This document shows positions 29,299-32,786 of a DNA stretch of 64,000 bases, piece by piece (position 1 is the first letter of the stretch; each line of letters opens with the position of its first letter). The position numbers were made by a program, and so were the translations under genes. Source of the DNA: Octopus vulgaris (lineage: Eukaryota); assembly GCA_951406725.2 (NCBI GenBank), contig OX597839.1, positions 12,834,001 through 12,898,000 on the forward strand. The letters run 5' to 3'. The notes beneath the pieces were generated by a model that saw nothing but the letters and a program-made list of their open reading frames with translations, made no database searches and was not told where the DNA came from.

Positions 29299-32200
29299 AA
29301 ATACATATATTGGGTTATCCCTGTAAAAAATGCATTTTTTATACTTCTTTTATTTTCCAAAATTAAGAAAAGTTCTTTTCTAATCTAAATTCTACTCTCC
29401 TTCATTTTCTACAATGCTCTTCTGTTTATCTGGTAGACTTGCAAGGCCCCTCTTCCAAAATTCTCTTGTCTGTGATGAAAAATACTCCTCCAGTATTGTT
29501 CTGACCTTCTCTACAGAATTCATATTTATTTCGTCCAAATGATTTTGAAGACTGTGGAATAAATGATGGGACAATGTCCAGCAAATATGGTGGGTGAGGC
29601 AAAAAAGGTTCATTCATGAGATGTGACAGCAAAGAAGATGTGACGCAGCACGTGATTAGACTTGGAAAGCTTGTGAGCAACCCATTGACCCAATTTGCTT
29701 ACTTTTCCGATGGCACACAGGTGTCGATGAATCCAAGCTTTTCTGCTAGTTCCTCAACACTTACAATAGGATTTTGTTCCACCAGGATTTGCAGGATGTC
29801 CTAGTTGAGCTCCACAGATCTTCCAGGACGAGGCTCATCTTCTAGTCTGTAGTTTCCAGCTTGTGTATATATTAAATAAGATTTATCTCTCCCCAGATAG
29901 AGTACTTTTTTGTAGATCTTACCAACCTGAAACAATACACTCTATGTGGTCAGTTGATGGTGGAGGACAAGAGAGAGACTTATGGAATTGGGAGAAGATG
30001 ATAAGTGAGCATGGCATCAGCAACACTTACATTATTTGGAAAATGTAATGGAAAGAGTACAGTGAAATTGCCTTGAAGAGTGGAATGTCTAAAGTTTCCA
30101 AAAATGGATAGTCCCGTGGGGTGTTTACAAAAATACTTATAGAGTTACAATTATGTAAAATATTGTCATGCTGCTTAGAAAAATAACATAACAGGGAATC
30201 TCTTTTACGATATAAATTAAATCAAAATTTCAACTAAATATATAACTAATATAACTATTCGTTGAAATTTAAATTATAATAAATTTATTGCAAAAACTTA
30301 TGTTGCAAATTGTAGGTGAAACACCCCAATACAATAACAGAGAAAAGTTTCAGTCATCAAAAATAGCCACAATATATTTCTTATGAGTTGAAATGGAAAG
30401 CAAAATCAATGTGAGCTGATTATGAAGGCAATGCTGAAAAGTTCCATAAGGCCAGGCTGGAGGTTGAACATTTTGAGCTCTTTTACAGGTCTTAGAAAAA
30501 CTGTCACACTGTTGCAATAAATGTGTGAATCTGAGAGAAGATGTTGAATAACATCATAAATAAACTGATTCTCCAGTAATTTTTTTTTTTACTCAAAGCC
30601 AGGAACTTTTCAGTATTCCCTAATATATAGCCAGTACTGTTCACTCAGATTCCCCACCAGTTGATGTCAAAGCGACATCTGCCTCCCACAACAACTGAGC
30701 TACAGTGGCACAACACAACATGTTACACACCCTCACTTAGTCAGAAAGGTAGTGGGAAGGAGCAAAATAAAACAAGTTGCCAACTAAGGATTGCAAGCAT
30801 TTAAAAAATTGGGGGATGACAAAACACCCCATGTGACTAACACAGGATTAAGATAGAGTGTGAAATTTGATGGTGATTTGGCTGTTATTTCTAAACAAAA
30901 AAGTAAATATGAAACATTTCAATAGGGTTGCTGAACCATCGAACAAACTGCCGGCATCAGTTGTTAGTTGTCGGAGCACTGCATCCTTCAAAACTTCCAT
31001 GCTTCCTGAGATTCGCCAACACTACACTTGATTTTCTCCCCTCCATACACACACAAGCATGTATCTGACTCATACATTGTTCGCTTTCCAGACATTTCTA
31101 CATTACTGCATGTACTTTATATGCACTTTCTGACAAGTTGTGTTGCACCTGAGCACTGTATACAATTAATTTCATTATTATTATTATAAATTCTTAAGAA
31201 TCATGGAAATATTTTTGCAGAGTCTAATACAAAACTGACTCAGAAACACCTCAACAAAATAGCCGCATACCTAGGGAATAAATGGAAGTCTGTTGGTAAG
31301 TATAAAATATACATTGCTTTAGATGTTTTGCTTCTATCATATCTTGATGTGTTTTTTACTTGCTTCAGCCATTATGTTGTTGCCATGCTGGGGCAGCACC
31401 TCAAAGAATTTTTAGTCGGATGAATCCAATACTTTATTTTCTTTTTTTTTAAGCCCAGTGCTTATTCTATCAGTCACTTTTGCTGAACTGCTAAGTTACA
31501 AAGATGCAAACACACCAACCCTGGATGTCAAGCAGTGGTGGAAACATACACAGACACAAACATGCACACACACGTGTGACAGGCTTCTTTCAGTTTCCAT
31601 CTACCAAATGCACTCACAAGGTTTTGGTTGGGCTGGGGCTATAGTAGAAGACACTTGGCCAAGGTCCCATGCAGTGGGAATGAACCTGGAATCATGCAGT
31701 TGGGAAGCAAATCTTCTTGCCACCCAGCCACCCCTATGCCTATCTAACTACAAAATAATGTTTAGTGAGTGCTACGATACTTAATGTGATGAAGAAAAAA
31801 ATTTCAGTTAAAGTTGTTCTTGCTAGGAGGAGAAGAAAAGAATCTTCACCCTGTTGCTACCATACTTTTGTTGGAACACTTCTTTTGTTGTAATTAATGT
31901 TGAAAATAATGAATTTATGAATATAACTGTTTTGAGATTAAGCTAGTCATCATCATCATCATCATTTAACGTCTGCTTTCCATGCTAGCATGGGTTGGAC
32001 GATTTGACTGAGCGCTGGTGAACCAGATGGCTCTACCAGGCTCCAATCTTGATCTGGCAGAGTTTCTACAGCTGGATGCCCTTCCTAACACCAACCACTC
32101 CGAGAGTGTAGTATGTGCTTTTATGTGCCACCGGCACGGGGGCCAGTCAGGCGGTACTGGCAACGACCTCGCTCGAATCTTTTTACACATGCCACCGGCT

Positions 32201-32786
32201 CAGGTGCCAGTAAGGTGACGCTGGTAACGATTACACTCGAATGGTGCCTTTTATGTGCCACTGGCACTGAAGCCGGTTAGCTACTCTGTCAGCGATCACA
32301 CTCGTATGGTGCTCTTTGCCAGTCATTGAACTTGATTTTGATTTTGATTTAAATTAACATAAAATTTGGATTCAAGATTTTAATTTAAATCACTTTAAAA
32401 ACAAGAAATTTGTATCATAGAACCAAAGTCAGTATTAAAAATTTAGTGTTAACAGTTGACAACTGTTTCAGGCCACCATTTTTCCCTATCGTAAATTTTT
32501 TCATTATGTATCCCTTGAAATTTATAAATCATTTACTATTATTATTGTTGTTGTCAATGATATAATATTTTTATTTTCAGGTCGAAATTTAGACATTCAA
32601 GATGTTTTCCTGGGTAATATTGAATCTGACAACCCACAGAAAACTGAAGAAGAGTGTTTTCAAATGTTGAAGAAATGGTCGGAAATATCTGAGCCAGGGA
32701 TGTGTACAACAGGCAAATTAGCTAAGGCTCTCATTGATGCTGAGTGTTATGGTGTGATTCCATATTTACCATTAGATGAGGAGTGA
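12338..32786 (+). CDS. Paralog A: complete spliced IMD-like adaptor (IBM-like repeats + RHIM-like motif + death domain), 269 aa; join(12338..12363,26746..27119,28413..28541,31221..31295,32581..32786)
   Basis: Kozak-type gaccaccATGg. All four introns are GT-AG with matching phases (2,1,1,1), giving an uninterrupted 810-nt [20 protein letters not shown]...STIRNGKNVAVGGDSNVTN...LTQKHLNKIAAYLGNKWKSVGRNL...PLDEE*. Same exon set and phases recur in paralog B. Confidence 0.8.
12486..22975 (+). repeat. 414-bp satellite/VNTR in intron 1 of paralog A, ~25 near-identical units plus a partial leader
   Basis: Unit acttaatactgtactgccaaccaggaagtacc... recurs every ~414 bp from 12665 to 22599. Confidence 0.98.
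24870..25255 (-). mobile_element. RTE LINE fragment; copy at ~63650-64000
   Basis: LEVVDSFHYLGDQVS...VATRIR; same family as 8846-9700. Confidence 0.8.
25337..25406 (-). ncRNA. Decayed hammerhead-like motif next to a (TA)n tract
   Basis: Minus strand GCCAUAUAA CUGAGAA GAUG...CAUC CAAA ACUCAGAGU U UUAUCAUGGC; all three stems present, two core substitutions. Confidence 0.4.
26746..27119 (+). CDS. Paralog A exon 2 (low-complexity region with degenerate IBM-like repeats)
   Basis: ttccattccag|C AAA GAC...GGC T|gtaagc; lies inside ORF 26693..27154; homologous to exon at 48055. Confidence 0.8.
28413..28541 (+). CDS. Paralog A exon 3 (RHIM-like TIRNGKNVAVGGDSNVTN)
   Basis: ttattccag|CA ACT ATT...TAT CTC A|gtaagt; 129 nt, phase 1/1; homologous to exon at 51506 (both end KFSKY[L/F]). 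Confidence 0.8.
29309..29862 (-). mobile_element. Internally deleted mariner transposase remnant
   Basis: LEDEPRPGRS...GKVSKLGQWVAHKL (WVPHEL-like), LPHPPY..D..PS (YSPDL region), HLFHSLQNHL, FWKRGLASLP..K.IVENEGE. Confidence 0.85.
30109..30839. mobile_element. MITE-like element with ~18-bp TIRs containing a nested mariner-type MITE (30421-30625)
   Basis: tagtcccgtggggtgttt ... aaacaccccatgtgacta; nested tgctgaaaagttcc ... ggaacttttcagta; absent from the B-type intron. Confidence 0.6.
30925..31186 (+). mobile_element. 5'-truncated CR1-like LINE 3' end with (ATT)n tail, A-specific insertion
   Basis: VAEPSNKLPASVVSCRSTASFK resembles the CR1 C-terminal WN.LP..VV...S...FK; empty site ttcaatataaattc at 833-846. 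Confidence 0.65.
31221..31295 (+). CDS. Paralog A exon 4 (death domain N-part, SNTKLTQKHLNKIAAYLGNKWKSVG)
   Basis: tttttgcag|...GTTG|gtaagt; 75 nt; paralogous to 874-948. Confidence 0.85.
32581..32786 (+). CDS. Paralog A exon 5 (death domain C-part + stop)
   Basis: ttattttcag|GT CGA AAT TTA...GAG GAG TGA; paralogous to 2218-2423. Confidence 0.85.

Follow-up and report, generated by a model that had tools for sequence, protein, structure and literature searches.

The DNA analysed here, a 64,000-nucleotide window of the Octopus vulgaris genome (contig OX597839.1, positions 12,834,001 to 12,898,000), holds only part of a cluster of death-domain genes which, with 200 kb of adjoining DNA, comprises six tandem copies, all on the + strand (B0, B', A, B, A2 and C). 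We favor, at a probability of roughly 0.58, the view that these genes encode Imd-type adaptors, that B0 is conserved, and that the young copies arose by unequal crossing-over, were homogenized and patched by gene conversion and diversified at their interaction surfaces through episodic selection, for which microbial antagonists are the likeliest driver. The central observation is that amino-acid-changing sites in the death domains of the young copies are about six times as numerous as the flanking DNA predicts.

Positions 31221-32786 of gene A were aligned with positions 874-2423 of gene B', a pair whose differences a preliminary description of this DNA had counted by hand. The alignment reproduced that count exactly (15 non-synonymous and one synonymous nucleotide differences, 12 changed residues), and nine of the 12 changes alter charge, in keeping with the earlier remark that many do so. 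Exon 4 (75 nt; 31221..31295 in A and 874..948 in B', where it is B-type), which encodes death-domain helices 1 and 2, contains eight non-synonymous differences and the one synonymous difference (TTA/CTA). Exon 5 (32581..32786 in A and 2218..2423 in B', A-type in both), which encodes the remaining death domain and the stop codon and carries the Pfam Death match, contains seven non-synonymous and no synonymous differences, all within codons 14-30; its last 37 codons are identical, so the near-identity claimed for the C-terminal part of this exon was fully upheld. The near-identity claimed for most of the flanking intron and for the 3' UTR is not uniform: the 3' flank differs at 2/1139 sites (tandem repeats masked), the later part of intron 4 at 8/869 sites (0.9%, in 31711-32580) and its first part at 11/395 sites (2.8%, in 31296-31710). 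This unevenness reflects a changeover of B' from B0-type to A-type sequence within intron 4 (31296..32580 in A), at approximately 31708-31944. Compared with flanking non-coding DNA, for which counts were read by hand, the A/B' pair shows an excess of changes in exon 4 (p ~0.001) and exon 5 (p 0.0002).

To extend the comparison beyond one pair, we pooled the four copies whose A-type exon 5 is complete (B', A, A2 and C), leaving out exon 4 of B (identical to that of B'), exon 5 of B (lost in an assembly gap) and exon 5 of B0 (an old lineage). The pool contains 22 non-synonymous variable sites and one synonymous variable site in 276 coding bases, compared with 3.7 and 1.3 expected from the flanks, in which 49 of 2574 aligned non-coding bases vary. 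A one-ratio codon model, fitted with a separate best tree for each exon, placed the ratio of non-synonymous to synonymous rates (dN/dS, or omega) at about 8 on a grid, with a likelihood-ratio p of 0.001-0.013 over six settings, indicating that an omega above 1 holds when all pooled copies are considered. Adding exon 4 of B0 gave a ratio of 23:1 (binomial p 0.007 with the flank mutation spectrum and 0.022 with unweighted sites), and treating adjacent changes as single events gave 22:1 (p 0.009 and 0.027, respectively). Codons 209 and 215 each encode four different residues over five distinct exon-4 copies, with single-step intermediates present.

Comparisons of the other exons delimit the signal. 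A and A2 differ at 7/75 sites in exon 4 and 5/206 in exon 5, compared with 0/373 in exon 2 and 0-0.8% in non-coding DNA, and B and B' differ at 8/123 sites in exon 3, all of them non-synonymous, compared with 1/478 in exon 2 and 0-0.14% in introns. In addition, exon 1 of B' carries four non-synonymous changes in 26 bases. The signal thus reaches the RHIM-like exon and the N-terminus as well as the death domain, and excludes the linker exon. Selection on the death-domain surface, as first described, is supported over the pooled copies; it is not significant for the A/B' pair alone, and it is not confined to the death domain, since exons 3 and 1 show it as well. Since synonymous density equals non-coding density, newly selected changes fit better than old divergence shielded from conversion. 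The earlier phrase "maintained against gene conversion" is accordingly incomplete: synonymous sites vary at the background level, and conversion also shuffles patches between copies, for example in exon 4 of A2, which is A-type with a B-type patch at 31262-31271.

To place the changed residues, the A-type protein of O. sinensis was modelled with AlphaFold2 from an alignment of 56 sequences (predicted local distance difference test score, pLDDT, >90 in the domain); the model has helices at residues 207-227 (H1 and H2), 232-241, 246-260, 268-277 and 281-286 in the numbering of the annotated A protein (P0001). The 12 A/B' sites fall in H1 (five), H2 (one), H3 (one), the H3-H4 loop (two) and H4 (three), as had been described from the sequence, and none lies in the hydrophobic core. 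We took as core the 18 alignment columns occupied by a hydrophobic residue in 60% or more of 135 death domains, a proxy for accessibility rather than a measurement of it; 0/12 A/B' sites (p 0.064) and 0/18 sites variable over all copies (p 0.0096) fall in these columns. In death domains, H1 and H4 form the type Ia face, H2 and H3 the type Ib face, and H3 with the H3-H4 loop the type III face (PMC11874512). RIPK1 residues K599 and R603 mediate type I contacts (PMC12130296), and their equivalents (K222 and R226) are invariant across the copies; the residue after the K599 equivalent varies.

The identity of the encoded proteins was assessed domain by domain. The Pfam Death model matched above its cut-off, and among solved structures the closest relative is the death domain of RIPK1 (E 2.7e-8). 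Foldseek returned death domains, with RIPK1 among the top rows (template modelling score, TM, 0.82 to 6ac5), none of them at E <0.001. The protein of A is recorded at NCBI as Octopus vulgaris "RIPK1-like", a name that rests on the death domain. We rejected an identity as RIPK1, as there is no N-terminal Ser/Thr kinase domain; no gene model contains a kinase domain, and no kinase match was found in 264 kb around the cluster. FADD was rejected because the proteins contain no DED, the genome's DED matches lying elsewhere, and membership of an octopus ankyrin-RING-death-domain family was rejected because neither ankyrin repeats nor a RING finger precedes the death domain. A full-library search gave 93 hits, including a crab protein named Imd (P0071), which aligned over the RHIM-like segment and the death domain, and further proteins without a kinase that aligned over this segment as well. 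This segment, encoded in A by exon 3 (28404..28541; core VAVG), upstream of the death domain, and in B by 51506..51628 (INIG and VIIG), has a VxxG/IxxG core whose Gly is invariant over 17 aligned proteins, crab Imd included; the RHIM core is defined in PMC9387487.

The linker exon provides the third Imd-like feature. B-type copies (B0, B and B') contain two TD-AVP motifs and one DD-SIP motif, kept in O. sinensis and O. bimaculoides, and at the level of motifs the B-type N-terminus bears candidate caspase sites that would expose IAP-binding motifs. In B, all three motifs lie in exon 2 (48055..48533), which varies at the background level. The D-[AS]-x-P motif to which these belong is missing from A in both its short and its annotated form, from A2, whose exon 2 is identical to that of A, and from P0002, the A-type protein of O. 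sinensis; C has one in its long exon 2. Over 15 kinase-less proteins the motif was found 15 times (eight carriers) compared with 2.0 expected, and twice compared with 3.6 expected in 16 controls. As described for Imd (PMC9496462, PMC9387487), its parts are a cleaved N-terminus with an IAP-binding motif, a cryptic RHIM and a FADD-binding death domain.

Candidate partners for such an adaptor were sought in the genome. It contains one FADD gene and one tandem-DED gene among three DED matches; the FADD gene is single-exon, encodes a DED and a death domain (E 8e-21 to human FADD), and lies on the contig of the cluster (L078:1489-2046; 2.42 Mb). A search for a kinase-RHIM-death-domain gene elsewhere in the genome, using the Owenia protein P0022, gave 34 kinase matches, none extending to the death domain of the query, in a genome whose genes match exon by exon. 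The single P0022 match that was inspected (L083) is a tyrosine-kinase exon, presumably ROR-like.

The history of the cluster was reconstructed from comparisons between copies and, at the protein level, between species. O. sinensis and O. bimaculoides each have two recorded proteins, one B0-type and one A-type, indicating that the two lineages are old and that the expansion either is recent or was collapsed when those species were assembled. The B0 death domain differs from its O. sinensis counterpart at 0/88 residues, compared with 8-15/88 for A-type copies and the O. sinensis A-type protein. B' is B0-type from exon 2 into intron 4 and A-type thereafter, with an A-type exon 1, and B likewise carries an A-type exon 1 (41758..41825); these mixed segments indicate that B' and B are chimeras. 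The two O. bimaculoides paralogs share exon-4 states with each other, which suggests repeated conversion of exon 4, and three of the 12 A/B' differences (207, 214 and 223, P0001 numbering) are already present between the O. sinensis proteins of the two types. Of the exon-5 changes, four are A-specific and two B'-specific; conversion from B0 as the source of the A changes was ruled out by mismatches in the flanking codons.

Several results weigh against our interpretation. Judged by its own synonymous sites, the A/B' pair is not significant by the Nei-Gojobori method (proportions of changed non-synonymous and synonymous sites, pN and pS, 0.069 and 0.017; Fisher p 0.10), a codon likelihood-ratio test gave p values of 0.137, 0.078 and 0.041 at kappa 1, 2 and 4, and a binomial test with the flank mutation spectrum gave p 0.056; we therefore dropped the dN/dS of this pair as sole proof of selection. 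The pooled test hinges on a single synonymous change, the tested region was chosen after being seen, and the pooled copies are linked by conversion. Tested against synonymous sites, exon 3 does not reach significance by itself (p 0.16-0.40). Outside the pool, exon 5 of B0 shares 50% identity with the A-type exon, at a dN/dS of 0.45-0.48. In a control of nine ankyrin-RING-death-domain copies on contig C29 (9 of the 12 stretches retrieved), 21 non-synonymous and five synonymous events match the neutral ratio, and the 22:1 of the cluster is not significantly higher (p 0.19). With respect to function, exon 2 of B' is one base short relative to B and B0, producing a frameshift as assembled, and the Pfam RHIM model matched no cluster copy in exon 3, in the proteins or in a genome scan. 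The D-[AS]-x-P pattern, that of Imd and IAP-binding motifs, had been seen before the protein groups were drawn. In a 35-row death-domain tree, 19 of the 32 inner branches are open and the cluster is neither joined to nor excluded from arthropod Imd; our claim is accordingly that these proteins work like Imd, not that they belong to it. Finally, K222 and R226, the latter equivalent to the NleB target, are invariant, so that the proposed pathogen driver shows no trace of escape at this established effector site.

The most serious alternative, although an unlikely one, is that selection was internal, the copies having diverged toward different death-domain partners of the octopus itself (other paralogs, the ankyrin-RING-death-domain family or receptors) or so as to avoid poisoning a B0-FADD filament, with no pathogen involved. 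In its favor, the changed sites lie on faces that death-domain assemblies use, charge changes predominate among them (9/12), and the RHIM-like exon has changed too; the 49 matches to exon 5 across the 2.8-Gb genome also offer many potential partners. Nevertheless, partner specialization would be expected to settle into conservation, and codons 209 and 215 are still being altered in a single species; in addition, only one FADD was found, a result that also weakens the preliminary suggestion of different partners.

Relaxed constraint after duplication appears rather improbable. On this view the changes would be due to drift at an omega close to 1, B' would by now be a pseudogene and the scarcity of synonymous changes would be a matter of small numbers. 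It is consistent with the frameshift in B', the non-significant A/B' pair, the neutral ratio of the C29 control from which the cluster does not differ significantly, and the lack of a cleavage motif in A and A2. However, drift cannot give a six-fold excess over flanks, or a 60-fold excess over introns in exon 3 of B and B', with the linker at background; in addition, no core residue has changed, and the pooled test already indicates an omega above 1.

We consider it quite improbable that A2 and C, which lie beyond the gap, or B and B', are alleles from two haplotypes, with balanced polymorphism at fewer loci. A gap of 100 N (57213..57312), inside intron 4 of B, does split the cluster at the point where B ends, only two genes each are recorded for O. 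sinensis and O. bimaculoides, and both exon-5 types occur at similar depth in one run. Against this, no gap interrupts the stretch that runs from B0 through B' and A to B, and the flanks of B and B' are 99.9% alike, and selection on the same surfaces would be required regardless.

Public sequencing runs, presumed to be RNA although none is recorded as such, bear on errors in the assembly. A contig of run X4 equals A over 32580-32857 with no other letters, so that sequencing error, which the preliminary description had named as a possible refutation, is unlikely for A; among the matches listed, runs X2, X3 and X9 carry alternative letters at 32622, 32637, 32638 and 32642, and X3, X4 and X9 carry alternatives at 31262-31266. 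Assembly error or a mutational process (multi-base mutation, short conversion tracts or repair templated by complementary DNA from a diverged donor) is therefore very improbable as a source of the pattern, despite three adjacent double changes in the A/B' pair, an excess of C-G transversions (6/23 coding sites compared with 3/49 non-coding) and the absence of the B'-specific letters 32647 and 32672 from the run matches listed, since independent runs carry A exon 5 exactly and alternative letters at seven listed exon sites, many states are common to O. sinensis proteins, a diverged donor would add synonymous changes and affect exon 2, and the selection test holds when events are counted.

Returning to Imd-type adaptors under selection, the parts can be arranged by analogy with Imd biology. 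The RHIM-like segment would nucleate amyloid with an upstream receptor, the death domain would recruit the single FADD and a tandem-DED caspase, and cleavage by the caspase at TD-AVP would expose an IAP-binding motif, leading to NF-kB signaling. B0 would be the conserved signaling copy. Unequal crossing-over may have produced the extra copies and the chimeras (A-type exon 1, B0 exons 2-4 and A-type exon 5), with conversion presumably homogenizing non-coding DNA and swapping short patches between copies, and new residues would be fixed by selection on the surface, at the faces of type Ia (H1, H4), Ib (H2, H3) and III (H3, H3-H4 loop). Without a cleavage motif, A and A2 might modulate the pathway or serve as decoys instead of relaying the full signal. 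A bolder and doubtful extension is that one conserved, cleavable Imd (B0) is accompanied by fast-evolving uncleavable paralogs and chimeras serving as decoys or tunable brakes, an adaptor repertoire built by recombination.

The cluster points to an Imd-like adaptor in a cephalopod that shows all three sequence hallmarks, which is relevant to the question of whether protostomes had the Imd pathway ancestrally; "IMD-like" genes have reportedly been noted in bivalves. Adaptors are usually single and conserved, and one frozen copy beside fast-changing ones suggests pressure on the immune signaling hubs of the octopus. The copies also form a natural series of death-domain variants, with exact residues named, for the study of interface specificity. 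Positive selection on Imd and RIPK death-signaling proteins is already known from other animals: in stinkbugs and bedbugs the Imd death domain is reported to be under diversifying selection (PMC12137711), and in some mammals RIPK1 and RIPK3 are under positive selection, in part around the RIPK3 RHIM (PMC12119088). According to a 2023 paper, Imd had not been found in molluscs, and one was reported in a nemertean (PMC9835746); a decoy or brake repertoire, if real, would exist in a phylum from which Imd was reported missing. The cluster is not described in the accessible parts of the literature on octopus death-domain expansion and molluscan Imd, including PMC9334734, PMC8995041 and bioRxiv 010942, a body of text mostly outside subscription papers and without supplements.

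The octopus proteins resemble arthropod Imd (Drosophila IMD, crab P0071 and hemipteran Imd-like genes) in being kinase-less, with a disordered N-terminal part, a RHIM-like core and a C-terminal death domain, and the D-A-x-P motifs of the B type match its cleavage and IAP-binding arrangement (PMC9496462). In contrast to the single arthropod gene, the octopus has six tandem copies with chimeras, with three cleavage-type motifs in the B type and none in A or A2. Vertebrate RIPK1 and lophotrochozoan kinase-RHIM-death-domain proteins (Owenia P0022) likewise have an upstream RHIM-like segment, and RIPK1, the nearest solved death domain, shares the kept K599 and R603 equivalents; unlike both, the octopus genes lack a kinase domain. 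Tandem immune clusters such as the major histocompatibility complex and plant R genes are shaped by unequal crossing-over, gene conversion and diversifying selection. The octopus cluster resembles them in its near-identical non-coding DNA, chimeras, patchwork exons and hypervariable surface codons, but its product is an intracellular signaling adaptor and not a receptor for a foreign ligand.

The octopus ankyrin-RING-death-domain family (NCBI "MIB2-like"; contigs C29 and C31) has a death domain 40-48% identical to that of the cluster, the same intron split and many recent copies, but has other N-terminal domains and forms a separate clade (99/98 support). These genes possibly arose by shuffling of the two death-domain exons of the cluster. 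The family is large (L006-L030, L051-L069), and its nine C29 copies vary mostly in helix 3 and the H3-H4 loop. A further protein, P0024, has an unusual architecture, an LRR-GPS-7TM adhesion-type receptor with a terminal death domain that belongs to the same family from octopus.

With respect to gene models, the cluster is anchored in window coordinates by exon 5 of B0 (-22997), B' (2218) and A (32581) and by A2 (71535) and C (99799), the last two beyond the gap. Exon 1 of A (12296..12363, start codon at 12338) was inferred from the homologous P0002 and P0095 rather than from a directly observed joint to exon 2. Exon 2 is a linker that in its short spliced form covers 26746..26882 and in the annotated P0001 extends to 27118. 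GT..AG joints at 26880>28402 (cut +2), 28541>31221 and 31294>32580 are present in contigs of three of the four public runs, indicating that the A type is spliced as modelled. The early GT donor in exon 2 (26882; later 27118) occurs in A and A2, with no counterpart in C and the B type, and of the two exon 3 acceptors (28404 and 28413) A2 and C keep one each. Exons 1-3 of B' lie upstream of the window; exon 4 of B is at 56617..56691, its exon 5 being absent from the assembly, and A2 has exon 1 at 58718..58785 and exons 2-5 downstream of the window. These exons, like those of A, are on the + strand.

A short upstream exon-like segment occurs in every repeat unit (7915-7953 and 37232-37270) and is used by the O. 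sinensis protein model; it may be an extra 5' exon. Intron 1 contains a tandem array of 414-bp units that are 99% alike, with 25 units in A (12633-22972), one in B (42095-42500) and five in A2 (59055-61127), and a 159-bp array lies 3' of exon 5 in B' (4251-6145) and A (34607-35463) with different unit numbers. In intron 1 of B, an open frame of 331 codons on the minus strand (45481-46476) matches GIY-YIG; the segment around it (44591-46710), flanked by an inverted repeat of 476 bp, is likely a fragment of a Penelope-like retroelement. Finally, introns 2 and 3 of B contain decayed fragments of long interspersed nuclear elements with reverse-transcriptase matches (49600-50300, minus strand, and 53500-55900, plus strand).

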